A stretch of DNA of 26,898 nucleotides from Candidatus Hermodarchaeota archaeon (GTDB lineage: Archaea; Asgardarchaeota; Hermodarchaeia; Hermodarchaeales; Hermodarchaeaceae): the NCBI GenBank assembly GCA_016839365.1, contig JAEOUH010000017.1, positions 1-26,898 on the forward strand, given 5' to 3'. Under the pieces are notes generated by a model. That model worked only from the letters and a program-made list of their open reading frames with translations. It searched no databases and had not been told where the DNA came from. A program made the translations under genes and the position numbers. Positions 1 through 24,710 of this stretch are shown here, piece after piece; the first letter of the stretch is position 1, and every line of letters starts with the position of its first letter.

Positions 1-1399
1 TAATGACCTTCTCGGCGTAAATCTTGGCGTTCTTGAAGATGATCTGAAAACCTGGTGCACCACCGGCTGCTGGTACCGTGGTCATCATCTGACCCGGCAT
101 CATGAAAGGTTGAGTCTGTTGAGCCATCGGGGCGGCTTCTTCTAGTCGCTCCTCCTCTTCCAACCTTGCTGCTGCACCTGTTTCGACCCAACGTTTAACA
201 ATGGGATGATTGTGATCCTTAAGGTAGGTCTTTAGTTCGTCGATGTTTCCGACGTCATTTTCTGTGGGGATAATGTCACGGATATTTTCTGGCATGAAAT
301 CATAGACACGGTCTTTGATAGCCTTGGGGAGCCAGACAATCCGATCCCAACTACCATCCACAATCAAGAACTTCGGAGATCGCAGATATTCGATAGAAAG
401 CCCATGAAAGCCAGGGATCTGACGGCCACCTGCGGTTGAATCCGCCATAGTGGAGAAAGGTAGGCCATTGACTGCAGCCCCCTTATAGTCTCGGTGTACG
501 ATTCCCAATCCATCCACTTCGGGGATGATGAAAGCAATCGCTTCAAAGCAACCACAGCTGGTATGCGGGTTCTCAAAGGCACTATAAAGAGCGACATCCG
601 TGACTGCGCCAAGGGTCTTTTCTTTGTAGGCTTGATTTACCCCTGCGTAGATACCCCTTTCTGTGTCGATGGTTTCACCTTTTTCAATAGCAAATAGAGG
701 ACCTTTCGGATCGACCCGCGCAGCAGCGCGTCCATCGAACCAACTGATAGCCCCACAATTCGCATATCGTTGGGCGGTGATCACACACATGTGTGTGGGG
801 GAGAAAGATTGGCACAGGGTACAACCGTAGAACACATCGACGTCGTCGTCTTTGAGGCCACGTGTCCGTTCATCTCGTGCATTGTAGGTTGTCATGGCAG
901 TATTATAGATCTCGTCCATCTTGCTAGTGTCTGTGTAAAAGGTGACCTGGATTTTCTCTATAATAGGCAACTCTGATTTGTATAAGCGTTGGTAGACTTG
1001 CCCTAGGATTTTGAAGCTGTTGAAACCCTTCTGGAAGGATTTCTTCCCAATGCGGATCCAGATGTCATAACGTTGGTTGAGGTGCATCGTGCCTTCCACG
1101 AAGTTTGTGTACTCGTGGATGTGGCGTTCAATGACTCCTTCCAAGTCTTGTTCAATCTCTTTACCAGCGACTTCAATTAAGATACCAAAGGGGTGGCTTT
1201 CACCTTCTTCGAGATCTTTGAGGTCTGGGCCAATGATTAGGATCTTCCCGTCTTCGACTTCGTTCGACTTTCTGGATAGCACAAGCTCGAACTTCTTGTC
1301 AACCTTTGGTCCACCAAGTTCAACTTGCATGTCAGCTTTTCGAATGCGTTCTCCTTCAAAGGTTACTCCTACTGAAACTGGTAGGTCTTCAAATGACAT
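1..1399 (-). CDS. cdhC: Acetyl-CoA decarbonylase/synthase (CODH/ACS) beta subunit, 3'-truncated by the window edge
   Basis: Not in the ORF track; translated by hand from ATG at 1399, which overlaps the cdhB stop (TAATG): MSFEDLPVSVGVTFEGERIRKADMQVELGGPK...FYGCTLCQSFSPTHVC...YANCGAISW...HTSCGCFEAI. The A-cluster cysteines are present and the frame stays open to the edge. Confidence 0.96.
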   Translation of the reverse strand, partial: MSFEDLPVSVGVTFEGERIRKADMQVELGGPKVDKKFELVLSRKSNEVEDGKILIIGPDLKDLEEGESHPFGILIEVAGKEIEQDLEGVIERHIHEYTNFVEGTMHLNQRYDIWIRIGKKSFQKGFNSFKILGQVYQRLYKSELPIIEKIQVTFYTDTSKMDEIYNTAMTTYNARDERTRGLKDDDVDVFYGCTLCQSFSPTHMCVITAQRYANCGAISWFDGRAAARVDPKGPLFAIEKGETIDTERGIYAGVNQAYKEKTLGAVTDVALYSAFENPHTSCGCFEAIAFIIPEVDGLGIVHRDYKGAAVNGLPFSTMADSTAGGRQIPGFHGLSIEYLRSPKFLIVDGSWDRIVWLPKAIKDRVYDFMPENIRDIIPTENDVGNIDELKTYLKDHNHPIVKRWVETGAAARLEEEERLEEAAPMAQQTQPFMMPGQMMTTVPAAGGAPGFQIIFKNAKIYAEKVI

Positions 1400-1968
1400 T
1401 ATTTGCTACCTCCTGAGAGAGTGAGAATTTCTTTGAGTGCGTCATTCCAATTCTGTTTCTTCAGGTTTGGAAAACTCCATGTTGCGTGAGGTTGATAGTA
1501 GCGACCGAGGGACACGGTCTTGATGTGGGGGGAGAAATTAATGAGCGCAGACAACATGAGCCATTCCATATAGTATGGGAAGCCATAGGTCATGACGAGG
1601 TCATGGGGTCCTTTCTTCGATGCGACCATCCAATCATGATCCTGGAGGCGTCCAGTGATTTCCATGGCACCATAGGAGTAGGCGTTATCAAAACCTTTCT
1701 CTTTGAAGGCTGTGATGGTATTTGCTGTAGCCACGATGGGGATTTTCGCTGCAGTGGAGAATTCGATGAAGTAGTCAATCATGGATTTCTTTCCTGTATT
1801 CTCTGTTAGGGCTTGAGAGCCAACCACAAGTAGGGGATGTTTTGCCTTCTTGAGGAGGGCACCCACTACAGCGGGTTTTTTAATGCCTTGGGCCTTAGTA
1901 GGTCCACAGACTTCAGCAGTTTGCCAGGGTTCTTCTCGCATCATGTCACTTACCACCTCCGTTACCAC
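1399..1968 (-). CDS. cdhB: CODH/ACS epsilon subunit
   Basis: EPWQTAEV.GP N-terminus, AKHPLLVVG, G.PYY and YQPHATWSFPN motifs; lies between cdhA and cdhC. The true start may be a few codons downstream. Confidence 0.93.
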   Translation of the reverse strand: MVTEVVSDMMREEPWQTAEVCGPTKAQGIKKPAVVGALLKKAKHPLLVVGSQALTENTGKKSMIDYFIEFSTAAKIPIVATANTITAFKEKGFDNAYSYGAMEITGRLQDHDWMVASKKGPHDLVMTYGFPYYMEWLMLSALINFSPHIKTVSLGRYYQPHATWSFPNLKKQNWNDALKEILTLSGGSK

Positions 1969-4303
1969 CGTAGACTAAACGTCTCACTAGTGTGGGGTCT
2001 GGAATTGGTTTTTCTTGCCACTTGTTCTCTTTCATCTGAGCCTTGATTTTGTCTTTAATGGTGATTGGGATGTCTGTCTCTCGACGAATGTACGTGTGGA
2101 CATCGTCGGGGAAGTACCCCTTGTAGGTTTCATGTAAGTCGATGTAGTGGCTTAGTTTAATGGCTCGGCCCTTCGCAGTATCGTTTGGACGAATTGCTAG
2201 CTTTGCAGTCATGACCATTAGTTCTTCTAAGTTCTCAACGGCGTAAAAAAGGTGTTCAGGACCCGCTGCAACTTGGACACGATCACCAGTTCGAGCATCC
2301 CATACCATCCAGTCTTCGGGCTTGTCAGCACGACCAAGGAGCATTCGACGGTACTTGGTACCGTGTGGACCAACAATGACCGGAACTCCAAGTCGCCAGA
2401 AACCTGCAGCAATGGAGGCGGCTTTCTGAGACATTGCACCCCACGAGATTCCAACTGCACCCACACGGTTGTGAATGTAATCAGCAATCTCTTCGTAGTT
2501 TCCTCGGAGGTTACGTTTGGCGAAGATGTTGGCAATTTTAATGGCTGCGCCTGCGATGTGTGAGTTTGCCACACAAGATCCGACATTGAGGACACTTCCT
2601 GCATCAAAAGTGCCAGGGCGTCGCTCATAAATCGACTTACCCTCTTCATCTTTGATGGCTCCCACAGTCATAGCTGCGCATCCAGAGAATACCACAATGA
2701 AACGTCGTTTGGCGAACTCTTCAGCATGATCGTGAATCGCGCGTCCACCATCGGGATAGTTTGCACACCCTACGTGGGCGATTACTCCAGGAATTTCTCC
2801 GAAAACGATTGGCTGGCCCACCGTTCGAATTTCTGTATCCTTGATGGCACCTCGGCCTGACCGGACCATGAAAGATTCTTGTTTCCATCGTCCTTCAGCG
2901 GCTTTCACCATCCAACTGTGTAAGTCGTATTCGTTGGGGCACGCGGACTCGCATCGAGCACAGCCAATGCATTCGTCATAGACATCAGCGAGTGGTTCGA
3001 AGTTACCTTCAGCAGCTGCCAACACCGCATCCATGACAGGTTGGTCATTGGGGCAAGATCGGACACATTCAGAGCATTGTCGGCAAGCCTGGGCTAATTC
3101 CTGCATCTTAGCTTTACTTGGAAGCGAACCTTTCTTCTTCCGCTTCGGATGCATCTTAATGGCTGTTTTAACAACAACCTCACCGATTTTCTCATGATCC
3201 CGAATGTAGACACCAGGTGTCTTACCTGACACTAGGTCCTTCACGATGTCATCGACATCATCATCAGTGCGGTCTGGCAAGCCCATGGTCGATTTATCAC
3301 AGGTGGCAATGACAGGTGAATTAACCTTCTTTGCGTGTTCAAGGATATCGGTTCGAATACACTGTTCGTCGACAACGACCACATCAGCAAACCCGGCACG
3401 AACAAAGCGTAGTTGCCAGGAAATGGGGCCAACGATCTTTGTCTTGGCGTCATAACGGGAAATATCCCAGGCTGTGCAACAAATACCGGCAATATCGATA
3501 TTGTCAGAGACTCCTGTTTCGGAAGCATAATCCATAATATAGGTTGCTGGCACCACGTTATGCCCAATGGCAAGAATCATGGCTTTCTTCGGGTCCATGC
3601 TTGAAATACCGGCTTCAATAAGCGGTGCGTCCGGATCCGACTGTGGGAACCCAAGCGTGGAGATCTGGGCTAGGTCTGCGATTTCCATGCCCACCTGGTC
3701 AATCATGCCCACGTGGAAGGCCTTCGATTCAAAATCAATCCAGCTGCCCTCCTGTCCGGTGGCTACGGCAGATAATGTGTGGGTTAGTTGGGTTTCACAA
3801 TAGTCTAGAATCGCTGAAGCGTCCTCAAGGGTACGGGGTCGAATCCCAGTGACCAGTCGGCTGACTGGCGCTTCGATTTCAACTCCATCTCCTTGGCTAA
3901 GTTCAAAGCGAGGGCCAAATTCATGAATCATATAGTCAACCATATGTCGGGAGTGTGCAAGGTGTGCGGCACACCCGATGTTCGCAGCAGCCAACACAAT
4001 CCGTGCTGACTGTCCTTCAATGTCGAGTCCACATGCACCCCGTTTGCCACTAGTTAAGTCACATTTCCCGAACGTACACAGACAGCAGAGTTGGCAGGCT
4101 GGCATGTACGCGGGCCGGTACCGGGTTAGGAGTTTGTGGTCCCAGCTGCGAAGAGTGGTGACATCAGGCATCGGAGTGGGTCCCATGGGCTCATCCCAAT
4201 CATCATCTATGACCTTGCCGATCGTGACTTCGATGTTCCGGAAGGACCCAAATCCAGTGTCAAGCTTATCGGCTTTCAGTCGTGCTCGTTTTTGTTCTGT
4301 CAA
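1946..4303 (-). CDS. cdhA: CODH/ACS alpha subunit (Ni-CO dehydrogenase)
   Basis: MGPTPMP; CQLCCLCTFGKC; HxxHxxH (AHLAHSRH); C-cluster ligand motifs GHN, GICCT, DEQC, VGC, SGC, GSC; SQKA; two extra ferredoxin motifs CRQCSECVRSCP and CIGCARCESACP. TTG start. Confidence 0.97.
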   Translation of the reverse strand: MTEQKRARLKADKLDTGFGSFRNIEVTIGKVIDDDWDEPMGPTPMPDVTTLRSWDHKLLTRYRPAYMPACQLCCLCTFGKCDLTSGKRGACGLDIEGQSARIVLAAANIGCAAHLAHSRHMVDYMIHEFGPRFELSQGDGVEIEAPVSRLVTGIRPRTLEDASAILDYCETQLTHTLSAVATGQEGSWIDFESKAFHVGMIDQVGMEIADLAQISTLGFPQSDPDAPLIEAGISSMDPKKAMILAIGHNVVPATYIMDYASETGVSDNIDIAGICCTAWDISRYDAKTKIVGPISWQLRFVRAGFADVVVVDEQCIRTDILEHAKKVNSPVIATCDKSTMGLPDRTDDDVDDIVKDLVSGKTPGVYIRDHEKIGEVVVKTAIKMHPKRKKKGSLPSKAKMQELAQACRQCSECVRSCPNDQPVMDAVLAAAEGNFEPLADVYDECIGCARCESACPNEYDLHSWMVKAAEGRWKQESFMVRSGRGAIKDTEIRTVGQPIVFGEIPGVIAHVGCANYPDGGRAIHDHAEEFAKRRFIVVFSGCAAMTVGAIKDEEGKSIYERRPGTFDAGSVLNVGSCVANSHIAGAAIKIANIFAKRNLRGNYEEIADYIHNRVGAVGISWGAMSQKAASIAAGFWRLGVPVIVGPHGTKYRRMLLGRADKPEDWMVWDARTGDRVQVAAGPEHLFYAVENLEELMVMTAKLAIRPNDTAKGRAIKLSHYIDLHETYKGYFPDDVHTYIRRETDIPITIKDKIKAQMKENKWQEKPIPDPTLVRRLVYGGNGGGK

Positions 4304-4372
4304 TGTAAAATCAACCTTCGTTCTGCGCGCATTTTGAAGGTGAAGTAATAGGCAAATAGTGACAGTATATCC

Positions 4373-4383
4373 TTTAAGTTTTG
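4373..4383 (-). promoter_or_regulatory. Putative BRE/TATA box of the cdhABC operon
   Basis: The minus strand reads CAAAA-CTTAAA about 70 nt upstream of the cdhA start. Confidence 0.3.
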
Positions 4384-4460
4384 ATGCATCTACAAGGTTT
4401 CAGATAACATTGTTAATCGCACTGTCAAACCTGACCTCTACTGGAATTTTTTAATTTAGG

Positions 4461-5651
4461 TTACTCTAATGGGACTTTTTTCCCGTTGATATAGGCTTCT
4501 GTCACTTCACTATAGAAATCGAAGGGATGTCCGGACCAAACAATGATATCTGCATCTTTACCAGGTTCAAAGGAGCCGATGCGGTCTTGCAGGTTAAGGA
4601 TTTCTGCTGGGTTGATGGTTACGCATTTGAGTGCATCATCGCGACTCATGCCTTCCTTAATTACGTACATGGGCAGTAAGGGAAAATAGAGCATGGGAGT
4701 CAACGAATCGGTTTGCAAAGCTACCTTCACACCAGTCTCATTCAAGACTACTGCGGTTTTGAAGCTTTTCTCCTTGACTTCGGGTTTCCCAGACCAGAGA
4801 ATTGTAGGGCCGATTACTGCGGGATATTGTTTCTTGGCTAGGAACTTCGCAATCTTGTGACCTTCCGTGCAATGAATGAGGACCAATCGGAGATTGAACT
4901 CCTCTGCAATACGAATGATAGTCGCAATATCGTCAGCTCGGTGACAATGGGCATGAAGGGGGATTTCACGTTTGAGAACCTTCGCAATGGTTTCGAAACC
5001 GATGTCACGTTTAGGCGCTTTTGGAATGATTTCGCCCTTATCCTTGGCATCCTTCGCTTTGACTCCGAACGCTTTCCATTCATCGAGATAGTTCTGACCA
5101 TCAGTGAAGGTTTTACGAAGAAGGGCAGCAACACCCATGCGAGTCATTGGCATCCGTTTGTTATCTTGCCCATGAATCCGTTTGGGATTCTCGCCTAGCG
5201 CTACTTTCAGTCCTGATGGGGATATGACAATCATTTTTTCAACAACAGTTTCAGGAACAGGCTTAAAGACAAAAGCTTCACCGGATACGACATTCCCGGA
5301 TCCTGGACCTGTGTTGACTGTAGTAACACCCCCTTTGAGAATTTCTTTGATTGAATATTCAAAGGGGTGGAACCCGTCCTTCCCCCGCATTTCGGGTGTG
5401 ACAGGGGTAGTCATTTCATTGCCATCTTGACCCATTGGACCAATGGTGCCATCGAAGAGCCCGTGGTGGGCATGAGCTTCAACAAATCCAGGGACTACGT
5501 ATTGACCCTCAACATCAATTGTTGTGGTTCTACTGGGAATCGCAATAGATTTTCCAACATCAACAATTTTACCCCGGTCAAAGAGAATTGAACCGTTCTC
5601 GATAAGCCCTTGAACCGGACACCAAATTGTTGCGTTCACAATGGCTTTCAA
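4461..5651 (-). CDS. Metal-dependent amidohydrolase (imidazolonepropionase-like superfamily)
   Basis: PGFVEAHAH (HxH), PGSGNVVSG, LKVALGENPK, HAHCHRADD, IHCTEG, TINPA and GKDADIIVW motifs; TTG start with GGTGA RBS. Not FwdA by length or motif. Confidence 0.9.
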   Translation of the reverse strand: MKAIVNATIWCPVQGLIENGSILFDRGKIVDVGKSIAIPSRTTTIDVEGQYVVPGFVEAHAHHGLFDGTIGPMGQDGNEMTTPVTPEMRGKDGFHPFEYSIKEILKGGVTTVNTGPGSGNVVSGEAFVFKPVPETVVEKMIVISPSGLKVALGENPKRIHGQDNKRMPMTRMGVAALLRKTFTDGQNYLDEWKAFGVKAKDAKDKGEIIPKAPKRDIGFETIAKVLKREIPLHAHCHRADDIATIIRIAEEFNLRLVLIHCTEGHKIAKFLAKKQYPAVIGPTILWSGKPEVKEKSFKTAVVLNETGVKVALQTDSLTPMLYFPLLPMYVIKEGMSRDDALKCVTINPAEILNLQDRIGSFEPGKDADIIVWSGHPFDFYSEVTEAYINGKKVPLE

Positions 5652-5787
5652 TAAGAGTCACCTTCCTATACCTTGCAATGATTAACCACGAAAAGCTTTG
5701 GGTGATGAGAAAATGTCCTAATTTTTTCGGTTTGCGAAGTTTTGGGAATACTACACCAGTTCGTTGTTAAATTACCACCTGTGGAAA

Positions 5788-5815
5788 GACCATCACCCTA
5801 CTGTTAGGATGGGTC
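5788..5815 (-). terminator. Imperfect hairpin immediately after the cooC stop
   Basis: GACCATCACCCTA-CTGT-TAGGATGGGTC; partial pairing only. Confidence 0.2.
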
Positions 5816-5817
5816 GC

Positions 5818-6612
5818 CTAAGTATTTAAGCGGCTTCGAAGTTCGGGAATCAAAGCTTTGATGGATTGAACTGCCGGTGAATCGGGGGCAAAATCAATTG
5901 GAGCTTGACCTTTTTGGTTGGCTTGGCGGATTGCATTATCGAACGGAATGATAGTTAATAAGGGGACGCCAATCGCTTTGAGGGTGCGTTCGATGACCTC
6001 CTGATCCGTTTCATCCATTACCTTGTTACCTACTGCAAACACCGTTTCTACGCCGATATCATTTGCAAGCTTCTTGATCCGTTCAACGGTGTTGATTGAA
6101 GTTTGACCTGGTTCAACGACAACGATCAGAGCATCCATACCTCGTGAGGTTCCACGACCAAGGTTTTCGATACCCGCTTCAAGGTCCATGATAAAAGCTT
6201 CATCGCTGCCTACGATCAGATGACGAATGAGTGCTTTAAGGAGCGCTCCGGCTGGACACATACATCCTGAACCCCCGATGGTTACTGTTCCAGCAATGAG
6301 TAGCGTGGTGTTGTCAGGTCCAGGAACCCCATATTTTTTGGCAAGATCTGAAACGTGCGGGTTGAGTTTGAACATGCCACCATAGGTTTTTTTGTCCATT
6401 CCAGTTCTCTCTTCTACGAGTTCATCGTTCTCAGTTAGTGGAACGATTTTTGCAGCGACTTCAGCGGGAATCCCAAGCGTTGATGCAAGGGTTGGAGTTG
6501 GATCTGCATCAACTGCGAGGACTTGGATGTTTTCACGACCTAGGAAACGGGCAAGAGTACCAGCAACGAGGGTTTTTCCAACTCCACCTTTTCCAGCAAC
6601 AGCGACTTTCAC
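5818..6612 (-). CDS. cooC: CODH/ACS nickel-insertion ATPase CooC/AcsF
   Basis: VKVAVAGKGGVGKT deviant Walker A, AVDADP, Ni-binding GCMCP, DLEAGIENLGRGT. GTG at 6612 with GGTGG upstream is preferred over the ORF start at 6684. Confidence 0.93.
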   Translation of the reverse strand: MKVAVAGKGGVGKTLVAGTLARFLGRENIQVLAVDADPTPTLASTLGIPAEVAAKIVPLTENDELVEERTGMDKKTYGGMFKLNPHVSDLAKKYGVPGPDNTTLLIAGTVTIGGSGCMCPAGALLKALIRHLIVGSDEAFIMDLEAGIENLGRGTSRGMDALIVVVEPGQTSINTVERIKKLANDIGVETVFAVGNKVMDETDQEVIERTLKAIGVPLLTIIPFDNAIRQANQKGQAPIDFAPDSPAVQSIKALIPELRSRLNT

Positions 6613-6683
6613 AGTGACCACCGTTGGTCGTAGTACCTGGGAAGAGTGTTTAAAAGATTCCCATCTAGCTATGACCCAAGTCA

Positions 6684-7964
6684 TCAGAGTGTCACGAGAA
6701 TTTGTTGGAGAACGTTTTCTTCAGTAAGAACTCCCTGTGGTGGTTCTTTGAAGGGCTTCAAGGGGATGGCTACTCCATCCATCCGATAAGCTGTTCCACT
6801 TGTCTCTGCCCCCATTAATGCTGTGGGAAAGACAATCGAGGCCTTTTTCGTCGTTAGGGTTGGGAGGGTGGAAAAAGTGATCAGTGGGAGTTTAGATAGT
6901 GCTTGAGCCATTGGTCCCGGAAGGAGGCTCAACGCATCCCAATTGGTAATTATAGCACAATCGAACTGCCCATCTGTTAAGCTCTTGAAGATTGACGTAA
7001 TGGGCTTTGGAGGATTTGAGCTAAAGTCAACGGAGAATGGTAGTTTAGAGCTTTTTAGGCTGGCTTTAACTGAACCAATAGTATTACAATAAGCGACCAT
7101 TGGGAAGGTCCAACAGCGGCGTTTGCCACGATTAAGGGTGCTTTTAAGTTGTTTGAGGAGGGGTAAGCTTTGAGCGGAGTGCGTGGTGTGTATCAACCCG
7201 TTTCCATAAAATAATGCGATGGTTTCTGCTTCGCGGAGCTGTTTTGCGAAGCTAAGGAACTCAATTGTGGGAACACCACCAACTTTCTCCGCTAATGGCT
7301 GCTGGGTTCCTTTGAGTTCACCAATCAGTGCTTGGAGGAATTCCACATCTCCAGTAGTTGGGGAAAGAATGAGCTGGTGGTTCGCTAGCCCCATTGATTC
7401 GGTTTTGCGAACATCGAGCACCGAAACCACGCGGCTTTCTCGTCCTTCAGGGATGTTTTTTCCTTTGGGAAAGATGGAGAAGCGGCTAGCATGACGATGG
7501 TGACTTTCTGCTGGATTGACGCCCCAATAGACGATGTGATCAGCATAATCACGGACATCATCCAGTCTGACCTGCTCTGATTCACTGTCCTGGAGCTTAG
7601 TTCGAAGTATTTGTCCATATTCAAAACTTGCAGTACTTTCGAAGACTCCCTTCTGGTTTTTAGATAGTTGTAACCCGATTTGGATTGCTTCCTGTGTGCT
7701 GTTGGACCAACCTATGAATAATGGTCTTGAATTATCTTTTAGGAGACTTTTGGCCTGTTGAATTGCATCTTTGGTTGGTATCGGTCCGAGCTTACCACTA
7801 CCATCTTTATACAATGCTGTCGTGAGTCGGTGTTTATTAAAAACAGAATTGCAGTATTCATGACCCAATCGGCATAATCCCAAAGACTGCAGGTTTGTTT
7901 TCTTCACCGCTACTGCAACGTCATCGCAGACCACAGAACAGCCACAACACACAGTATCCTGCAT
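6684..7964 (-). CDS. fwdB: Formylmethanofuran dehydrogenase subunit B homologue with degenerate active site
   Basis: VCCGCSVVCDD...CRLGH 4Fe-4S motif, RPLFIGWS, ADHIVYWGVNP..SH.RH, DVRKT, FYGNG, PFSVDFS, G.ETSGTAYRMDGV. Canonical TASVCHGP reads TASFEYGQ. ATG at 7964 is preferred because 8039 overlaps fwdG. Confidence 0.88.
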   Translation of the reverse strand: MQDTVCCGCSVVCDDVAVAVKKTNLQSLGLCRLGHEYCNSVFNKHRLTTALYKDGSGKLGPIPTKDAIQQAKSLLKDNSRPLFIGWSNSTQEAIQIGLQLSKNQKGVFESTASFEYGQILRTKLQDSESEQVRLDDVRDYADHIVYWGVNPAESHHRHASRFSIFPKGKNIPEGRESRVVSVLDVRKTESMGLANHQLILSPTTGDVEFLQALIGELKGTQQPLAEKVGGVPTIEFLSFAKQLREAETIALFYGNGLIHTTHSAQSLPLLKQLKSTLNRGKRRCWTFPMVAYCNTIGSVKASLKSSKLPFSVDFSSNPPKPITSIFKSLTDGQFDCAIITNWDALSLLPGPMAQALSKLPLITFSTLPTLTTKKASIVFPTALMGAETSGTAYRMDGVAIPLKPFKEPPQGVLTEENVLQQILVTL

Positions 7965-7998
7965 GGTTCTATTCTTCCTAACACAATAAAGAGTTGTA

Positions 7999-8466
7999 TC
8001 ACCATATCTCGATAGCCTTAACATAGCAGCCCTGTTCACATACTCGGCAGTTCATCCGATCAGGAGGAAATCGACGACATCTCTCTAGATTGATAATTTT
8101 AACGATCCCATCTTCAACCCGAAAGACAGTTTCTGTCGTTCGAGCTGCTTTCCCAGAAGCTGTGTCAGGCTCTACAGTTGCATCTACGGGACAAACGACA
8201 ACACAGTTCCCACACCCTGTGCATTTGGTTTCATCTAGTTTTAAACCTGTTTCTTCGGTATCGAGAAGGGGGGTGATGAGGTTTGAAAGTTCGGCGAGTT
8301 GGGCTTTGTACTGCTTTTCTTCAAAGAGGGGCGTACATTCTTTGAGTTCGACATCACGGAGCGCTAATCGGGTGGCAAACGCCATGCACGTCATCCCACA
8401 TTTTTTGCAATTGGTTTGAGGAAGCAGTTTGTATAATTGCATCGGGTTGATTTTCTTATCCGACAT
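7999..8466 (-). CDS. fwdG: FwdG/FmdG-like ferredoxin with an N-terminal FeS domain
   Basis: LYKLLPQTNCKKCGMTCMAFA domain, then CTGCGNCVVVCPV and C...CRVCEQGC; directly upstream of fwdB. Confidence 0.8.
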   Translation of the reverse strand: MSDKKINPMQLYKLLPQTNCKKCGMTCMAFATRLALRDVELKECTPLFEEKQYKAQLAELSNLITPLLDTEETGLKLDETKCTGCGNCVVVCPVDATVEPDTASGKAARTTETVFRVEDGIVKIINLERCRRFPPDRMNCRVCEQGCYVKAIEIW

Positions 8467-8644
8467 CTGGGTACGACACAGCCTACATCTATTGTGTTCC
8501 GACTTGACCCTTTATCTCTTCGGTACCAACCAGCCATTTTCATTTACCAATTTCCTTAATAGTTCAATCAAAGGATAGTAATGTAAAAACTGTTAAAACG
8601 TATATTGCCGCCAGAAGAGATTGAAACGACTAATGGTGACTGCG

Positions 8645-11089
8645 GTGGCAAAGACCTCGAAAAAGAAAATACAGAAATCTCAACCCAAGAAGCCTCGCCG
8701 TAAACCCGCAACCAAATCATCTGGCAAGACGGCATTGTTTCTGTGCCACTGTGGGTCAAATATCGACAGTATTGTAGATATCGATGCACTAATCAAACAT
8801 TACAAAAAGCTGCCCAACCTGGTTGTAGTGGATGATGCCCATTTTTGTGTTGAACAGGGACTGAACCAAATTCGTGACACTATCCGCAAGGAGAAGGTGA
8901 CTCACGTCGTGGTTGCAGCCTGCTCACCTCGGTTACATGGAGAACTCATGAGCCAGACTGTCGAAGAAGTAGGATTGAATCGGGGACATCTCGCCATTGC
9001 CAATATCCGGGAACAGTGTAGTTGGGTTCACTGGGATAATCCCGTTGCAGCCACCGCTAAAGCACAACTGATGATCGATGCGGCGTTGACAATGGCTCAG
9101 CACGGGTTTGCTATTAGCTCGATTAGCGTTCCGATTACGAGACGTGTACTTGTCATAGGTGGGGGACCTGCTGGGTTAACCTCCGCACTACAACTTGCAG
9201 ATGCAGGATATGAAGTGGTACTCGTTGAGAAGAGTGGATTTCTAGGAGGACACATGGCTAAGTGGGACAAACTGTTCCCCAGTCTTGATTGCAGCCTCTG
9301 CATCCTCGGACCCCTTATGACCCAAGTGGGTACTCATCCTAAAATCAAGGTCCTCACACTCAGCGAGGTTACCGGGGTTCAAGGCACGCCTGGAGCATAT
9401 CAGGTCAAAGTTCATCAGGAACCCCGATATGTGGACCTGGAGACCTGCAATGGGTGTAATAAATGTCTAGAAATTTGTCCCATCGAGGAGCCCAATGAAT
9501 ACAATTATGGCATTGGAACACGGCGGGCGATTATACGCCCTTATCCGAATACAGTACCCCTCGCACCCTATATTGACATGAATACATGTGTAGGATGCCA
9601 GTCCTGTGTTGGCGTGTGCGAGAAAGAATCCATCCGGTTTGAAGACTCTGACCGCGACCATATCTTCAAGGTTGGGGCAATCATCGTTGCCACAGGATTT
9701 ACACCTTATAATCCCCAAAATCTCAAGGAATACGGGTATGAGCAGTATCCTGATGTTATTACCGCACCTGAACTCGAAAGACTATTGGATCCAATTGGAC
9801 CCTCCAATGGCGTCATTGTCCGACCCTCTACAGGAGATCCACCCAAACGCATTGCATTTGTCCAATGTGTAGGCAGCCGAGATATTCGGATTGACCGTCC
9901 TTATTGTAGTCGAATCTGCTGCACATACGCTGTTAAAGAAGCAGTCCAGCTCCGCCTCTCACAACCTGATACCGAAGTTTTCGTTTTCTATACGGATATG
10001 CGAACCTTCGGGAAAGGATTCGAGGAACTGTATGAAAGAGCTGCACGTGAATACGGCATCACCTTTATTCGTGGTCGTGTGGCAGAAATTGAGGAAGATC
10101 CCCAAACTCATAAACTTCATATCCGGGCTGAAGATACTGAACTTTGCGAGCCCATCGAGTTTCCTGCCGACCTTATCGTGTTGAGTGTCGGAGTTGATCC
10201 AGCACCTTCCAACGTGAAGTTGGCGACTTTACTCAACATCCCCCTTGATGAGAATAATTTCTTCTTAGAAAAACATCCCAAGCTTAATCCTACAGGTACC
10301 TATTCTTCGGGTATCTTTTTGGCAGGTACATCGCAAGGTCCAAAGGATATTGCAGATACCGTTGCGCACGCGGGGTTGGCAGCGGCCCAGGTTTCCGCTC
10401 TTCTGAACCGACGGAAAATCGAATTGGAAGTATATGCTCCTGTAGTAGACGAAACGTTGTGTGAAAGTTGCCGACTTTGCGAAAAGACCTGCGATGCCAA
10501 TGCCATCTCCTTTGAAAGTTCCGAAACTCCCCAAATCGATGAAATTGCTTGTACTGGTTGCGGGGCGTGTGTCGCCGCTTGTCCCACAGCCGCCTTGGAT
10601 CTGCCAGGATTCACGCGTCAGCAACTCCTTTCAGCGGTTGATGTAGCTTGTCAGAACAATTCATTGCACCCCGTTATCATTGGCTTCCTTTGCAACTGGT
10701 GTGCGTATGCTGCGGCGGATAGCGCCGGTGTCAACCGAATACGGTATCCTCCGCAAATGATTCCGATTCGTGTACCGTGTACAAGCCGCCTTGATCCGTT
10801 GCTAGTCCTAGAAAGCTTCAGTCAAGGAGCGGATGGTGTAGCAATCCTCGGTTGTCATGAAACCGATTGCCATTACCGCACGGGTATGACCAAAGCGAAG
10901 GCCCGAATTGATAAACTGCGTCCCTTGCTTGAAGAAATGGGGATTAACAGTGATCGAATCCTCTTTGCTAGTACAGCTGCATCCGAAGGAGCCAGGCTTG
11001 CTGAACTGGTTTCTGATTTTGTCAAATCTATTGCAGACATTGGTCCTCTCGGATCCGAATTGACAGTTACGACAAAAACCCGTCAATAA
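8645..11089 (+). CDS. hdrA: Heterodisulfide reductase subunit A fused to an MvhD domain
   Basis: CHCGSNI, AACSP, NIREQCSWVH, VIGGGPAG (FAD), FPSLDCSLC, inserted and C-terminal ferredoxins, QCVGSRD, YCSRICC..A.K, GPKDI. C-terminal MvhD from about 10670: IGFLCNWCAY, IRVPC, GADGV, GC...CHY. Start may be 8621, 8633 or 8645 (GGTGA precedes 8645). Confidence 0.95.
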   Translation: MAKTSKKKIQKSQPKKPRRKPATKSSGKTALFLCHCGSNIDSIVDIDALIKHYKKLPNLVVVDDAHFCVEQGLNQIRDTIRKEKVTHVVVAACSPRLHGELMSQTVEEVGLNRGHLAIANIREQCSWVHWDNPVAATAKAQLMIDAALTMAQHGFAISSISVPITRRVLVIGGGPAGLTSALQLADAGYEVVLVEKSGFLGGHMAKWDKLFPSLDCSLCILGPLMTQVGTHPKIKVLTLSEVTGVQGTPGAYQVKVHQEPRYVDLETCNGCNKCLEICPIEEPNEYNYGIGTRRAIIRPYPNTVPLAPYIDMNTCVGCQSCVGVCEKESIRFEDSDRDHIFKVGAIIVATGFTPYNPQNLKEYGYEQYPDVITAPELERLLDPIGPSNGVIVRPSTGDPPKRIAFVQCVGSRDIRIDRPYCSRICCTYAVKEAVQLRLSQPDTEVFVFYTDMRTFGKGFEELYERAAREYGITFIRGRVAEIEEDPQTHKLHIRAEDTELCEPIEFPADLIVLSVGVDPAPSNVKLATLLNIPLDENNFFLEKHPKLNPTGTYSSGIFLAGTSQGPKDIADTVAHAGLAAAQVSALLNRRKIELEVYAPVVDETLCESCRLCEKTCDANAISFESSETPQIDEIACTGCGACVAACPTAALDLPGFTRQQLLSAVDVACQNNSLHPVIIGFLCNWCAYAAADSAGVNRIRYPPQMIPIRVPCTSRLDPLLVLESFSQGADGVAILGCHETDCHYRTGMTKAKARIDKLRPLLEEMGINSDRILFASTAASEGARLAELVSDFVKSIADIGPLGSELTVTTKTRQ

Positions 11090-11155
11090 TGGAATCCAAT
11101 ATCATTAAAGTTTTAAATCAATCTTCGTTCACAGATACACAAGTAACTTTGAGAG

Positions 11156-12862
11156 TTGGAATGCGTGCGGAGGTTGAAATATCTACTCACCATTTGGTTG
11201 CTTTTATCAAGCCTTGCATTAAGCCTCGTTTCACCCAGTGCGATACAGCCAACACCAGTCAATAACCCAAGTAGCAGTCTCGTGAGTTCAGACCAAATCT
11301 GGAACGTGACTGAGGATTTAGGAATAGGGCAAAACATCTTCCATTCAGTTATTGCCTGTAGCGATGGTGGCTATCTAGCCACGGGGACCGGTATTTTTCA
11401 GAGTCGCTGGTCTATCTTTTTAATGCGGTTAGGAGAGAATGGAGAGGTCGTATGGCGCAGATTTTTCCAGGAATATATCTCGCAGGGCGGAATGGAGGTT
11501 GTTGAATGTCAATCAGGTGGATTTGCTGTAGTTGGCTACACCACCTCAAATAATCATGATGTCCTGCTCCTTCGTACTGATGAGGAAGGGCAAACCATGT
11601 GGTATCGAACTTATGGTGGAGTATCTTCTTATGAACAAGGAATGGCATTAGTTGAATGTCAGAACGATGGATTCGCATTAGCTGGATTTCAACGAAATTA
11701 TGGCAGTGATGATTCTGATTATTTCCTCGTCCGCACTGACGAAGAAGGCACCCAAGTCTGGAACAGAACCTATGGTGGAAATGCTCCTGATATCTGTTAT
11801 TCTCTTATCGAATCGCCTAGCCGATATTTCTATTTAGCAGGTTCAACTGAAAGTTTTGGTGAAGGGGAGGAAGACGCTTGGATCGTAGCGACCTATGGAA
11901 GCGGAAAAGAAGTATTTAACCGCACTCTTGGTGGCTCTATGACTGATATATGTCATGATATCATCGATTCAGGAGCAGAAAGGTATGCATTTGTTGGTAA
12001 TACTGCAAATTCCCCGAACATGATCGCCGATGGCTTTGTAGCTACACTTCATGGGAATGGCACTATTCTTTGGGAGACAACCTTTGGTGGTGTATTATTT
12101 GATAGCGGTTATGCAATTGCAAAATGCCAAGATGGGGGGTATGCGATAACAGGACAAACCTTTGACAGCTCAGGATCGACTAATCTGTTGCTTATCCGGA
12201 TAACCAGTGAAGGTGAATATCAGTGGATGAAGAGTTATGGAGCAGACAACGATGATGAAGGTCGATCCATAGTCCAAGCCGCGAATGGAGATTTCATCAT
12301 TGTAGGTTTGACGGATGAACACATTGAGGACTTCTATAATTCACACTCGATGGCTTTCGCATTACGAGTCCCCGATATTAGTCCGGAATATATTCCAACA
12401 CCTGAATATGGTCCACCAGATTTTGGGTTAATTAGTACTGGGGGTGGTCTTGCCATTCTCATGCTTCTTGGGGCCTACTTGATGCTAATACGCAGTCGAA
12501 GAGAGATCAGACAAAGTTGGGTTAAACCGAAACGCCGAGTAATCAAAAGGTCATTCTCAACCCCATGGTTACTTGATGAGTTGTCAGCTGTCTTGCGTGG
12601 TGAAATCCGTTGTTTGAAATGTAATGAACTTAACCCAAAGTCTAATCTTCGTTGTATTAAATGCACCAGTCATCTACATTGTTGCATATTTTGTGGCCAA
12701 ATCATCGCCCAAGGGAATGAAGTCCTTTTCTGCCCGAAGTGTAAGGTTCTAGCTCATTCCAATCATATGCTTGAATGGTTAGCGAAACGAAATTATTGTC
12801 CAAGTTGCGGCTATCGTTTCAAAAGTCAAAAAATTCTCAAAAGGGGAGACCAACCAGTGTGA
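11156..12862 (+). CDS. Single-pass membrane protein: signal peptide, beta-propeller repeats, TM helix, zinc ribbon and RING-variant finger
   Basis: About 7 repeats of W.RTYGG...D.G......C.DGG(F/Y)A..G; Pro-rich stalk; TM GLAILMLLGAYLMLI followed by RSRR; CLKC/CIKC; CIFC-x11-CPKC-x4-HSNH-x2-EW-x6-CPSC. Start uncertain (11156, 11165 or 11174). Confidence 0.85.
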   Translation: MECVRRLKYLLTIWLLLSSLALSLVSPSAIQPTPVNNPSSSLVSSDQIWNVTEDLGIGQNIFHSVIACSDGGYLATGTGIFQSRWSIFLMRLGENGEVVWRRFFQEYISQGGMEVVECQSGGFAVVGYTTSNNHDVLLLRTDEEGQTMWYRTYGGVSSYEQGMALVECQNDGFALAGFQRNYGSDDSDYFLVRTDEEGTQVWNRTYGGNAPDICYSLIESPSRYFYLAGSTESFGEGEEDAWIVATYGSGKEVFNRTLGGSMTDICHDIIDSGAERYAFVGNTANSPNMIADGFVATLHGNGTILWETTFGGVLFDSGYAIAKCQDGGYAITGQTFDSSGSTNLLLIRITSEGEYQWMKSYGADNDDEGRSIVQAANGDFIIVGLTDEHIEDFYNSHSMAFALRVPDISPEYIPTPEYGPPDFGLISTGGGLAILMLLGAYLMLIRSRREIRQSWVKPKRRVIKRSFSTPWLLDELSAVLRGEIRCLKCNELNPKSNLRCIKCTSHLHCCIFCGQIIAQGNEVLFCPKCKVLAHSNHMLEWLAKRNYCPSCGYRFKSQKILKRGDQPV

Positions 12863-12940
12863 GAAGAGCCTCAGAACAAAACGATTTTTAATCTACGGTC
12901 AACAGACAGTAGCCAAACTGTATGCTGAGGTATCGGTCGA

Positions 12941-14314
12941 TTGCCAAAAATCACCGGGCTGCTTCTTGGTCTGCTCCTCACGCCATTTAGCATTCCCCTT
13001 ATCCTCTTTCAACCTTTGAATTATGAGTCAGCCGTTGCACAACCACGATTAACTAGCAATCTGGAACGTGAGAATGACTTTCGATGGGTGCAATTTTTTG
13101 ATAATATAACTGCCAGACATCCCAGATCCATTTCTGAATGCCAAACAGGGGGGTTTGTCATTACAGGTTTCGTTGTGGAATCAGAGATTGGTCTCGGTGA
13201 TGAACATGCATGGATGGCTAGAATCAATGCAGTTGGGGAAATCATCTGGGAACACGATTACGCATCTGGACACCGTGGTTGGGGACAAGTTGTTATTGAA
13301 TGCGAAAACGGTGATTTTGTAGTGGCTGGAGGTGTGGATGATGAATTCTCGAATGTTCTTATTTTTCGAACTGACCGATGGGGAAACCTTCTATGGCAAC
13401 GGATTCTAGCCTTTACGGAGCATCAAGAAGGTTATGCAGTAACAGAATTACCAAGCGGGCTCTTGGTCGTGTGCGGATGGGCTTGGCACTATCGACCGAC
13501 CAATCCTATTGACGGATTGGTTATTTGTCTTAATGCTAGTGGCCAACTAATCTGGCATCGAGAATATGGTGGTCTTGGGGACGACTACCTATATTCTATT
13601 GCTAGGGATTCAAGTCAGGGATTGACCTTTGTTGGCTCGTCAGAGAGCTTCTCAGATAGCTCGATTAGAATGTGGGCAATGAATACTGATTTTGATGGAA
13701 CGCTAAAATGGGAACGGACATTTGGGTACTCAATGTATAGTCGGGGCAATAGCATTATCACAACAAGTGAGGGTGAATTGACCATGGCAGGTGTTATGCA
13801 GGATATGGGGGCTGGTCGGTTGGGTTCTTATATCGTTCATACAGCCCCGGATGGCTCGGAGTTATGGGAGCAGCAACTGGATTTAGGCACAGATAATGTC
13901 GCCCATTGTATCACGTCTTGTAGGGATGGTGGCTATGCAATGATCGGTGCTGTATCTCATTCAGAAAATAATCCCTGGCATGATATCATTGTTGTTCGAT
14001 TTGATCGAGATGGAAACATCCTTTGGCGAAAGGTCTATGGAGGAGAAGGAAATGATATTGGGGTATCGATAGTAGAGTGTCGTGAGGGGGATTTGGTATT
14101 TGCGGGTTCCACTTCTAGTTATGGATATTTGAGTGGAACAACTTGGCTCACCCAAATTCCAGATGCGCCACCACCACTCGTCGATCTGAGACGGGTGGAC
14201 TTGCTCATAACCCTGTTTGGATTGACTCTTGCTTTGATTGTTCTTGCGGTAACGGGTGGCATCTATCTTGTTAGCCGCAGAGAGATAAAACATCGTATTC
14301 GAGATTGTGCCTAG
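12941..14314 (+). CDS. Membrane-anchored beta-propeller protein, paralogue of the upstream gene lacking a cytoplasmic domain
   Basis: Hydrophobic N-terminus, the same W...YGG / EC..G repeats, IPDAPPP stalk, C-terminal TM followed by SRREI. Confidence 0.85.
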   Translation: MPKITGLLLGLLLTPFSIPLILFQPLNYESAVAQPRLTSNLERENDFRWVQFFDNITARHPRSISECQTGGFVITGFVVESEIGLGDEHAWMARINAVGEIIWEHDYASGHRGWGQVVIECENGDFVVAGGVDDEFSNVLIFRTDRWGNLLWQRILAFTEHQEGYAVTELPSGLLVVCGWAWHYRPTNPIDGLVICLNASGQLIWHREYGGLGDDYLYSIARDSSQGLTFVGSSESFSDSSIRMWAMNTDFDGTLKWERTFGYSMYSRGNSIITTSEGELTMAGVMQDMGAGRLGSYIVHTAPDGSELWEQQLDLGTDNVAHCITSCRDGGYAMIGAVSHSENNPWHDIIVVRFDRDGNILWRKVYGGEGNDIGVSIVECREGDLVFAGSTSSYGYLSGTTWLTQIPDAPPPLVDLRRVDLLITLFGLTLALIVLAVTGGIYLVSRREIKHRIRDCA

Positions 14315-14380
14315 GACGGTAACAAGCATTATAGGCGAAGATTCCGAAAGCTAGTATAGCAGTTTTTAGAGACTAATCCT

Positions 14381-15823
14381 ATGACAAAGGCTCAACGAGA
14401 TCGAATAACTGTGGGAGAACGCCCAAAGGTAACTAGTGAAGTCTTAGATGATACCAATATCCGGTACAATTGGAAAACATCACTGCTAAATAAAAACCTC
14501 AAATATGATCTGTCCCGCTGTGTTGGTTGCAGTCTCTGTCTGCCCTGTCCCTGGGATGCTATCACCTTGGGACCAGTGCAGGAAATTGCCGCAGGACGCC
14601 TTGAAGAAGCACCTCTCATTCTCATCGATGAGGATAAATGCACTTTCTGTGGCTTATGCGATTCTGCCTGCCTTTTTAATGCGATTGAGGCGCGATTTGA
14701 TGATATCCCTGCCGATCGACAATTTTTACGATTGAAAGGGAAACATGAACTCGATAAAGAGAAATGTGCCCCCTGTGTTTTGTGTGCCAAAGTCTGTCCC
14801 CGAAACGCTATCACCGTGGACCTCAAAGTTACTCCTAAAACCAAACTGGTCAGTTATAAGGATTCCAAGGCTGCCAGACGAGTGGCTGAGGGAAAACCAG
14901 ATGCCAAAGGAACCATTGCCATCGATGAGGACAAATGCACATGGTGTGGCTTATGTGAATTGTTGTGTTCTGAATGCGTCACTATCTACTGGTCAGAGGA
15001 CAAGCCAAAACCTCCCGAATTCGCACCTGCCGTTGGCATACGAGTTGACAAAACACACTGCGATTACTGTGGGCTGTGTGAGAAGATTTGTCCTTCCGAT
15101 GCCGTGAAGGTTAACTGTGAAAGCACACCTTCTCGGACAATCAAGGATCCCGAAGTCGAGGGAACTATGACCATTGATGACGGGCTTTGTGTTGACTGTA
15201 CACTATGTGCTGAAAAATGTCCCTATGAAGCCTTGGAGGTCACGTTACCACTTACCGGTGATATTGAGATTCAAAACCTTGAGAAATGTGATCCCACAGG
15301 GTGCGTTAATTGTTTTAACATATGCCCCACTAAGGCCATTTATCCGACCGGTGATAAGGATAAAATTGCCATCAACAAAGATATCTGTGTCTTCTGTGGG
15401 GCTTGTGAAAATGCCTGTCCTGAACAGGTCCTTAAAATTACGCGAGACAGTTATAAACTCTCTCAAATTGAGAAAGCCCGTGATTGGGAACGAGCACGAG
15501 CACATATGTTCTATGACCACTTGATTGGGTTAACTGCTCCACGAAACGATATTTATGAACGTGTTATCAAAGTAGCTCCCACCCAACACGAAACTGCCTT
15601 GCAAACAAAATCAGACCAGTGGTCAGAACACAACGTTAGTCGTACACAGGCCCAAGCACGAATTCAGAAACTACAAGAGATTATTCGGAAAAATTGGCGG
15701 TTACGTTTACTTTTCGAGCGAGGTCGCGTCGATCCTTTATGCGCAGCTGTCAAAGACGAGGCGCAAAAAAAACCAAGTTTAGGAGCTAGTGGAAAAGCTA
15801 CTTCAAAAAATCAGCCCCGTTAG
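14381..15823 (+). CDS. fwdF: Polyferredoxin, FwdF/FmdF-like
   Basis: Eight CxxCxxCxxxC-type motifs (two slightly irregular: CVGCSLCLPCP and CDPTGCVNCFNICP); fwd/hdrA context. Confidence 0.85.
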   Translation: MTKAQRDRITVGERPKVTSEVLDDTNIRYNWKTSLLNKNLKYDLSRCVGCSLCLPCPWDAITLGPVQEIAAGRLEEAPLILIDEDKCTFCGLCDSACLFNAIEARFDDIPADRQFLRLKGKHELDKEKCAPCVLCAKVCPRNAITVDLKVTPKTKLVSYKDSKAARRVAEGKPDAKGTIAIDEDKCTWCGLCELLCSECVTIYWSEDKPKPPEFAPAVGIRVDKTHCDYCGLCEKICPSDAVKVNCESTPSRTIKDPEVEGTMTIDDGLCVDCTLCAEKCPYEALEVTLPLTGDIEIQNLEKCDPTGCVNCFNICPTKAIYPTGDKDKIAINKDICVFCGACENACPEQVLKITRDSYKLSQIEKARDWERARAHMFYDHLIGLTAPRNDIYERVIKVAPTQHETALQTKSDQWSEHNVSRTQAQARIQKLQEIIRKNWRLRLLFERGRVDPLCAAVKDEAQKKPSLGASGKATSKNQPR

Positions 15824-16329: not shown

Positions 16330-17025
16330 GTGGCCTACGATATTGCTCGATCCAGCATATCCTACATGACTTATACTCTTATTCTACTCAATACTGTCAT
16401 ATTCATCCTCGTCTATGCTGTCGAGATACAAACTGGCTATCCTGTTATCACCTACATGTTCGCCCTGATTCCTTCAGTTATCGTTTCTGGACAAAATCTT
16501 CACACACTGATCACAAGCCAATTCCTTCATGCCGATTTCTTCCATTTGTTAATCAATATGTACTTCCTTTTCATCTTCGGACAAGTGGTAGAGCGTGAAA
16601 TGCACCCCTTTACTTATGTGGCTCTCTATCTCTTTGCAGGGATTATTGGAGGATTAGGACATGTCCTCATAATGTTTACAATTAGTTCTGCAGTGAATCC
16701 TTGGGGGATTTCTATCCCGACCATCGGAGCTTCTGGAGCTATCTTTGGAATAATGGCTGCTTATGCATATTTGCTTCCTCGTCGCCCCATTGGCATTTCC
16801 GGGGATGCTGGACGTACAGCCGGTGCCTGGAACATTATCATCATCTACTTTGCCATCGAAGTGATCATGATGTTTTTAGCTTTTGGCACAGGTGTCGCTC
16901 ATGGGGCTCATGTGTTTGGGTTTGTTGGAGGCTTCCTATTCGCGTTTAGTTATCGACGCATTCGAGTCTGGAGAAATCGATCCAAACCAGGAAGTGAGTT
17001 TGACCCCTATGAGTATTATGTATGA
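16330..17025 (+). CDS. Rhomboid intramembrane serine protease
   Basis: TSQFLHADFFHLLINM, catalytic GASG, AHGAH..G; multiple TM helices. Confidence 0.94.
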   Translation: MAYDIARSSISYMTYTLILLNTVIFILVYAVEIQTGYPVITYMFALIPSVIVSGQNLHTLITSQFLHADFFHLLINMYFLFIFGQVVEREMHPFTYVALYLFAGIIGGLGHVLIMFTISSAVNPWGISIPTIGASGAIFGIMAAYAYLLPRRPIGISGDAGRTAGAWNIIIIYFAIEVIMMFLAFGTGVAHGAHVFGFVGGFLFAFSYRRIRVWRNRSKPGSEFDPYEYYV

Positions 17026-24671: not shown

Positions 24672-24710
24672 AAAAGAAAGGAGGGGGAGGTACCTCTTTA
24701 GGAGGATACC
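24672..24710 (-). terminator. Hairpin plus pyrimidine/T tract after the FN3 gene
   Basis: GGTACCTC-TTTAG-GAGGATACC imperfect stem, followed on the minus strand by CTTTCTTTT. Confidence 0.4.

Follow-up and report, generated by a model that had tools for sequence, protein, structure and literature searches.

What does a RING finger do at the end of an archaeal membrane protein with a large ectodomain? The question is raised by a gene on contig JAEOUH010000017.1 of the Asgard archaeon Candidatus Hermodarchaeota archaeon (assembly GCA_016839365.1), which is located in a stretch of 26,898 nucleotides that was analysed as a whole and is called the window below. Its product, P0001, is predicted to combine a signal peptide, a β-propeller, a transmembrane (TM) helix, a zinc ribbon and a RING-like finger (Table 1). 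The results presented here suggest that P0001 is probably a membrane-anchored ubiquitin ligase (E3), putative as yet, which is laid out like the receptor-type E3s of eukaryotes.

The finger of P0001 has the pattern C-x2-C-x12-CPxC-x4-H-x2-H-x3-W-x6-CPxC and contains eight zinc ligands. Trp541 comes four residues behind ligand 6, with Pro549 directly following ligand 7, so that both residues named in an earlier note on this DNA as hallmarks of binding to ubiquitin-conjugating enzymes (E2s) are present. All 12 zinc-binding Cys and His residues of the ribbon and the finger are invariant in 11 full-length relatives (30-85% identity) with the exception of H537; H537 and W541 are each kept in 10 of the 11. 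An exhaustive phmmer search (HMMER) with amino acids 480-568 against 1.84 billion cluster representatives (E<=1e-3) matched 438 representatives; a word-index search returned two close relatives only. The motif C-x2-C-x(10-14)-CPxC-x4-H-x2-[HED]-x3-W-x(5-8)-CPxC was found in 144 of the best 150 of these 438 matches, at 30 residues or less from the C-terminus in 134, and all residue counts given below refer to the 144 motif carriers. Ligand 6 is a His in 130 of them, a Glu in 10 and an Asp in 4, and a hydrophobic segment precedes the RING in 89. Ordinary RING-H2 proteins of the eukaryotic type, with C-x-H-x2-H spacing, were also among the matches. In a family alignment of the tail (A3, 61 sequences), the Cys residues of the ribbon are present in at least 90% of the members. 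The recurrence and conservation of the Cys/His pattern in relatives make a chance origin untenable. At E<=0.01, 58 of the 61 members of A3 matched the Pfam family zf-RING_2 (PF13639; best 5e-9) and 55 matched Prok-RING_1 (PF14446).

Modelling and homology both predict that the tail folds as a cross-brace RING. The AlphaFold2 (AF2) model obtained with A3, which has a predicted local distance difference test (pLDDT) value of 80.8, consists of two hairpins followed by a β-β-α RING core. The A3 profile, when compared with solved proteins, gave the C-terminus of IFT144/WDR19 as its best match (E 4.8e-9, profile positions 3-78), followed by RNF4 (1.6e-8); RNF24, EL5, RNF165, Arkadia, RNF126, HRD1, RLIM, ZNRF3, AMFR, RNF38, RNF13 and Listerin were matched as well, as were WDR24, WDR59 and MIOS of GATOR2. 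The E values obtained with the family profile for solved RING E3s ranged from 1e-8 to 1e-4. Three RINGs solved in complex with a ubiquitin-charged E2 (E2~Ub) could be superimposed on the tail model with Z scores of 5.5-7.3: RNF165 (Z 7.3, 1.7 Å over 51 residues; 1.1 Å over 46), RNF12 (1.1 Å over 47 residues) and the PA-TM-RING protein RNF13 (1.1 Å over 48 residues). Further fold matches, obtained with Foldseek and VIA-align, were EL5, RMR1, RNF38, RNF4 and U-boxes, and the best 50 VIA rows were all RING or U-box proteins. Taken together, the fold and profile matches point to a RING with a noncanonical spacing between ligands 3 and 5. The choice between a RING, a PHD finger and a double zinc ribbon, for which the earlier note had proposed profile and Foldseek comparisons of the tail, thus falls to the RING. 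The PHD finger, which is suggested by the C-x2-C-x4-H arrangement, was rejected, as PHD6 of MLL3 reached a probability of only 0.57 and the Trp and Pro hallmarks are kept.

Sub-threshold matches of P0001 to the zinc-ribbon families DZR, Zn_ribbon_RPB9 and L40e (Pfam, NCBIfam) could be taken to mean that the protein is a membrane-tethered zinc-finger protein that binds nucleic acids or regulates transcription, and that it acts as a one-component signaller upon its release by proteolysis. A gene for a rhomboid intramembrane protease is located at 16330-17025 (+), 3.5 kb downstream of the genes of both single-pass propeller proteins of the window (P0001 and its neighbour P0002, see below), but this position is beyond the orthologous loci that were fetched. 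The DZR matches are a consequence of the CxxC pairs; they span the ribbon together with the N-terminal half of the RING, and a double zinc ribbon was rejected. With nothing but RING and U-box proteins among the best 50 VIA rows, such a role in nucleic acid binding is considered highly improbable.

The residues of P0001 at E2-contact positions are F512 (hydrophobic, before ligand 2), W541 and P549. In the family, the residue before ligand 2 is a Val or Ile in 136 of the 144 proteins, the Trp is present in 131 and the Pro in 143. The small RING protein srfp of Caldiarchaeum subterraneum is an active E3 in vitro, and its activity is impaired by the substitutions I30Q, W58A and R69A (PMC5654768). 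I30 and W58 are the equivalents of F512 and W541, while R69 occupies the so-called linchpin position, at which P0001 has Gly552.

A lineage without an E2 or ubiquitin would have been hard to reconcile with the proposal of the earlier note. A search of the assembly that carries P0001 (2.2 Mb, 84% complete) revealed a complete cascade, with genes for ubiquitin, a ubiquitin-activating enzyme (E1) and an E2, as well as one for a small RING protein. On contig C71 they are present in the order E1, E2, ubiquitin and RING (P0005), with genes for a coiled-coil protein, UEV-Vps23 and further components of the ESCRT machinery, including Vps4, in the divergent direction. The E1, encoded at C71:37318-38403, consists of a ThiF and a Ubl domain. 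The E2 is a UQ_con protein (112 bits) with the WHPN...C signature, PY in loop 4 and PS in loop 7. In the ubiquitin gene (C71:39018-39254, minus strand, locus L001) the Gly-Gly codons directly precede the stop codon. The pro-ubiquitins of Caldiarchaeum (PMC5654768) and of a Helarchaeial species (bioRxiv 10.1101/2023.07.25.550441) carry a C-terminal extension; as the ubiquitin of this genome ends in a bare Gly-Gly, no processing step would be needed. The Helarchaeial E1/E2/RING cascade was shown to ubiquitylate UEV-Vps23 in vitro (bioRxiv 10.1101/2023.07.25.550441).

The operon RING P0005, a protein of 131 aa, agrees with the finger of P0001 in its ligand spacing and in the placement of the Trp and the Pro. 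In BLASTP, the P0001 tail aligned with it over 52 aa at 33% identity (E 1e-9). Judged from this homology, the finger of P0001 is a paralogue of the small operon RING. A hidden Markov model (HMM) made from A3 detected P0001 and P0005 alike in this genome, and five family members in all, four of which have a TM segment. In the member on contig C46, a TM helix and a ribbon are combined with two tandem RINGs in which a Tyr replaces the Trp, a replacement also present in the member on C49. The one on C39 has a Glu at ligand 6 (HANE). A 49-aa fragment on C42 is almost identical to the RING encoded on C39, but its Cys positions are broken; it is probably a pseudogene or an artefact of the contig end.

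The distribution of the RING family over 301 Asgard genomes in 30 families, among which related genomes are not independent observations, follows that of the E2. The family is present in 210 and the UQ_con E2 in 209 of the 301 genomes, with at least 18 RING matches scored in some of them, and the two agree in presence and absence in each of the 30 families. Neither occurs in any of the 76 genomes of family f6 or the 5 of f16, and both are present in the same single genome (G105) of the 7 in f19. The sole genome with a mismatch, G122, is 77% complete. Propeller-TM relatives occur in 44 of the 76 genomes of f6, yet neither the RING nor the E2 does. As the profile includes the operon RING, these data mean that the family in its entirety does not outlive the E2 in this sample; a dependence of the P0001 subfamily on the E2 is not implied.

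A number of observations weigh against a ligase function of P0001. Its tail alone stays below the gathering thresholds of Pfam, both for zf-RING_2 (15.3 bits vs 27.3) and for Prok-RING_1 (16.8-17.4 bits vs 29.1). The spacing of ligands 3-5 is C-x2-C-x4-H instead of the canonical C-x-H-x2-H; C-x2-C-x4-H-x2-H has been described as a PHD/C4HC3-like spacing of prokaryotic RINGs (PMC11354881). A Phe at the residue before ligand 2 is rare (3 of 144), a Val or Ile being usual. The linchpin position after ligand 8 is occupied by Gly552, with an Arg at +3; across the family this residue is a Gly in 56 and a Lys or Arg in 47 of the 144 proteins, and P0005, unlike P0001, has an Arg there. The gene for P0001 lies outside the ubiquitin cluster, on a different contig, and the E2 co-occurrence is carried in part by the operon RING, which the A3 profile detects too. 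Finally, the closest matches of the whole tail are with C-terminal domains of GATOR2 (WDR24 and WDR59; Z 8.0, 76-77 residues, Foldseek E 3e-4) and of IFT-A. A complex prediction with the E2 of this genome (30-row alignment), three zinc ions and the tail (A3, residues 1-80) gave a score of 0.19 (mark 0.32); it was run without controls and is not used as evidence on either side.

The C-terminal RINGs of GATOR2 and IFT-A proteins are mainly structural assembly modules. By analogy, the ribbon and RING of P0001 might form a noncatalytic module for assembly or oligomerization, which would cluster the propeller proteins of the surface or dock them onto a cytoplasmic scaffold as in GATOR2/SEA, IFT-A and HOPS. 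The match with WDR24 and WDR59, the first place of IFT144/WDR19 among the profile matches, the missing linchpin Arg and the presence of a RING-less tandem paralogue as a possible partner are all in line with such a role. The E2-contact Trp and Pro are nevertheless kept in nearly the entire family, whereas IFT144, when aligned to A3, has lost several zinc ligands as well as these two residues. The presence or absence of the family equals that of the E2 in the 30 Asgard families, and the closest relative of the finger within the genome is the operon RING, homologues of which are active E3s. A purely structural RING is thus regarded as rather unlikely.

The reading of P0001 as a ligase also depends on the side of the membrane on which the tail is located. 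P0001 is likely to be a type I single-pass membrane protein, with the propeller outside and the ribbon and RING inside, as predicted from its sequence. The signal peptide proposed in the earlier note could be recognized by its basic n-region (RR/K), a hydrophobic stretch at aa 7-25 and an SPSA c-region, and hydropathy and alignment indicate that it is kept among the orthologues. The start codon is at the position that is also found in the orthologues. The proposed TM helix with its positive-inside charges was likewise found: the 15 aa before it contain no Lys or Arg and three Asp or Glu residues, while the 15 aa after it contain seven Lys or Arg residues. From these charges, the tail is placed on the cytoplasmic side and not outside the cell. 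The four N-x-S/T sequons are all in the ectodomain, N-terminal of the TM helix. A Pro-rich stalk is present, in partly conserved form, where it had been expected, and the coordinates of the zinc ligands in Table 1 are exactly those of the earlier note. In the linker behind the TM helix, S447, E450, L476, L480 and G482 are conserved in the 11 relatives; an AF2 model of the tail from three close sequences contained a helix of low confidence at aa 470-480 (pLDDT 46, unusable).

Table 1 Predicted features of P0001 and its tandem paralogue in the window
Feature	Position	Strand	Characteristics
Whole gene P0001	11156..12862	+	Open reading frame (ORF), 568 aa, TTG start; likely type I membrane protein
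Signal peptide, aa 1-29	11156..11242	+	Basic n-region, hydrophobic core, SPSA c-region; hydropathy peak aa 7-25
Seven-blade β-propeller, aa 46-405, SBBP/CylK-like, predicted extracellular	11291..12370	+	Repeats and profile match
Pro-rich stalk, aa 406-423	12371..12424	+	PDISPEYIPTPEYGPPDF; RVPD and GPP conserved
Transmembrane helix, aa 424-446	12425..12493	+	Kyte-Doolittle peak
Basic juxtamembrane linker, aa 447-484	12494..12607	+	Conserved L..VL.G segment; alignment of 11 relatives
C4 zinc ribbon, C486/C489/C500/C503	12611..12664	+	Invariant Cys; modelled as a β-hairpin pair
RING-H2-like finger, C510 C513 C526 C529 H534 H537 C548 C551	12683..12808	+	F512, W541, P549; profile and fold matches
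Tandem paralogue P0002, 457 aa	12941..14314	+	Signal peptide, propeller and TM helix as in P0001; no zinc domains

The ectodomain is predicted to be a seven-bladed propeller from its repeats and from sequence homology, in accordance with the about seven blades that had been counted before. Seven repeats of ~50 aa are anchored at W49, W100, W149, W202, F254, W306 and W357. A profile of 10 ectodomain sequences (A8) matched the solved protein CylK with an E value of 1e-22 (profile positions 148-369; residues ~403-650 of the chain), a region which we take to be the C-terminal seven-bladed β-propeller of CylK. The ectodomain of P0001 on its own gave weak matches to SBBP (PF06739), delta-60 and DUF5122 (Pfam, NCBIfam), without reaching the Pfam threshold for SBBP as a single sequence, and the leads obtained from the protein atlas were of the SBBP, DUF5122 and PQQ type only. 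A PA domain was not matched in P0001 in the Pfam scan, the ectodomain being a propeller instead.

Among the sampled genomes, full-length matches from the propeller to the RING were limited to the same genus, where they were present in 12-13 of 14 genomes (36-85% identity). Five more metagenomic cluster representatives with the P0001 architecture have 30-39% identity. The closest named homologue (76% identity) is from Promethearchaeota, and Hodarchaeota and Freyarchaeota are named for more distant relatives (31-39% identity). Those members of the wider RING family with a taxon name that were searched are all Asgard archaea (Promethearchaeota, Hodarchaeota, Freyarchaeota, Heimdallarchaeota). In other members of the family, the same C-terminal tail is located behind TM helices that follow PPC, CarboxypepD_reg, Big_7, fn3, LRR or PEGA domains, and some members carry cytosolic HEAT, PCI or wHTH domains. 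The variety of extracellular domains in front of the same tail indicates that ectodomain-TM-(ribbon)-RING is a recurring modular layout.

The gene order hdrA-mvhD, TM-RING, RING-less paralogue and polyferredoxin is syntenic in the genus, with the paralogue lost or reduced to a remnant in two species. The paralogue P0002 has 25-27% identity to the ectodomain of P0001 and a basic cytoplasmic tail of 19 aa with a single Lys. It adjoins the TM-RING gene in three of the five orthologous loci that were fetched (L004, L006, L008) and in genome G096, is a 101-aa remnant in L005 and is absent from L007. P0002 might interact with P0001 as a partner or serve as its substrate. In these loci (window 8621-15823, L004-L008), the identity of the flanking genes is typically 85-93%, with 71-83% for shorter HdrA fragments, while that of the TM-RING is no more than 42-45% in the four more distant orthologues. 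The TM-RING thus evolves much faster than its neighbours. A diversification specific to the ectodomain was not seen, as all regions diverge to about the same extent among the orthologues.

Rapid evolution is frequent in surface proteins, and P0001 might accordingly be a surface adhesin or envelope protein, the zinc tail of which is a target or a regulator, for instance a ubiquitin-binding finger or an acceptor of a degradation tag that controls the turnover of the protein. Short-tailed propeller-TM proteins are indeed common: propeller matches were obtained in 175 of the 301 Asgard genomes, and of the four propeller-TM proteins in this genome only P0001 has a long cytoplasmic tail (123 aa vs 18-24 aa). 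P0001 therefore looks like a common type of Asgard surface protein that acquired a zinc tail. The ribbon of P0001 does not have the spacing of an NZF finger, however, and the pattern of conservation is better explained by the features of a RING together with the homology to active E3s, so that a passive or purely regulatory tail is judged to be improbable.

The reading of P0001 as a membrane-anchored RING ligase, which would recruit the E2~Ub of the genome at the inner face of the membrane and mark itself or neighbouring membrane proteins, is the one we consider reasonably likely. Via F512, Trp541 and Pro549, the RING would recruit the single catalytic UQ_con E2 of the genome in its ubiquitin-charged form. 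Ubiquitin would then be transferred to P0001 itself or to nearby membrane proteins such as the RING-less P0002, and the ubiquitylated targets might be read by UEV-Vps23 and the ESCRT machinery or be degraded. The propeller would supply the specificity for a target or ligand at the cell surface. As inferred in the earlier note, P0001 might also serve as a surface sensor which couples the binding of a ligand outside the cell to ubiquitin modification inside.

Positions 2-8466 (-) and 8621-11089 (+) of the window contain genes for carbon monoxide dehydrogenase/acetyl-CoA synthase (cdhC, the epsilon subunit and cdhA) as well as for a cooC-like ATPase, for Fe-S proteins and for an HdrA-MvhD fusion of 822 aa. 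Pyruvate phosphate dikinase and a RuBisCO-like large subunit are encoded further along, as is a BNR-repeat protein. No Pfam match was obtained for the ORFs at 6684-8039 (451 aa) and 24710-25864 (384 aa).

The ubiquitin cascade of Asgard archaea, which is eukaryote-like, adjoins ESCRT genes; little is known of its cellular targets, and studies have so far been confined to the small operon RING. A membrane-anchored RING with a large ectodomain directs attention to the cell membrane as a site of archaeal ubiquitylation, where the protein itself, its tandem paralogue and other surface proteins are candidate targets. P0001 bears on the origin of the ubiquitin-dependent control of membrane proteins, and pre-eukaryotic sorting of such proteins by ubiquitin becomes directly testable with recombinant proteins. 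As the RING family is large, mostly C-terminal and often preceded by a hydrophobic segment, its significance is not confined to P0001. The ribbon-RING cassette resembles the C-termini of GATOR2 and IFT-A proteins from end to end, which may offer a clue to where these eukaryotic modules originated. A far wider proposal, which we hold to be unlikely, would be that Asgards have a broad modular class of receptor-like TM-RING ligases that mark surface proteins for sorting or turnover by ESCRT, as a prokaryotic forerunner of ubiquitin-dependent receptor down-regulation, and that their ribbon-RING cassette is the ancestor of the C-terminal zinc finger-RING modules in the propeller-solenoid proteins of eukaryotes (GATOR2/SEA, IFT-A and HOPS/CORVET), and perhaps also of the RING found in PA-TM-RING ligases.

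P0001 shares features with several known systems. In GATOR2/SEA (WDR24, WDR59, MIOS, Sea4) and IFT-A (IFT144/WDR19, IFT122, IFT121), the ribbon and RING are matched from end to end, the Pfam models of the IFT121, IFT144 and IFT122 zinc fingers also match members of the RING family, and β-propellers are present as in P0001. These proteins are cytosolic, however; an α-solenoid separates their propeller from the RING and a TM helix is absent, whereas P0001 has a signal peptide and a TM helix but no solenoid. With CylK, and by weak matches with the SBBP and delta-60 repeat proteins, P0001 shares a predicted propeller, which in P0001 is a membrane-anchored ectodomain; of the N-terminal domain of CylK there is no trace.

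The likeness to the PA-TM-RING proteins (RNF13, plant RMR1) and to RNF43/ZNRF3, to which the earlier note had drawn attention, consists in the layout of an ectodomain, a single TM helix and a cytoplasmic RING-H2, and extends to the RING itself in the profile matches with ZNRF3 and RNF13 and the superposition on the latter. P0001 differs from these E3s by its propeller, the additional zinc ribbon and the spacing of ligands 3-5; as it lacks a PA domain, it does not belong to the PA-TM-RING or RNF43 families. The shared layout may be convergent, since there is no homology to receptor-type E3s outside the RING. A description of the Asgard TM-RING receptor architecture was not found in the searchable literature, which excludes most subscription papers, among them a survey of prokaryotic RINGs from 2011.

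The closest likeness is with the archaeal srfp operon RINGs of Caldiarchaeum, the Helarchaeial species and this genome (P0005), which belong to the same HMM family as the finger of P0001 and share its co-occurrence with the E2. Unlike them, the RING of P0001 is fused behind a signal peptide, a propeller, a TM helix and a zinc ribbon, and has a Gly in place of the Arg and a Phe in place of the Val or Ile. By homology, the RING of P0001 is placed in the archaeal srfp/Prok-RING lineage, albeit with additional parts and with a gene that lies apart from the operon.

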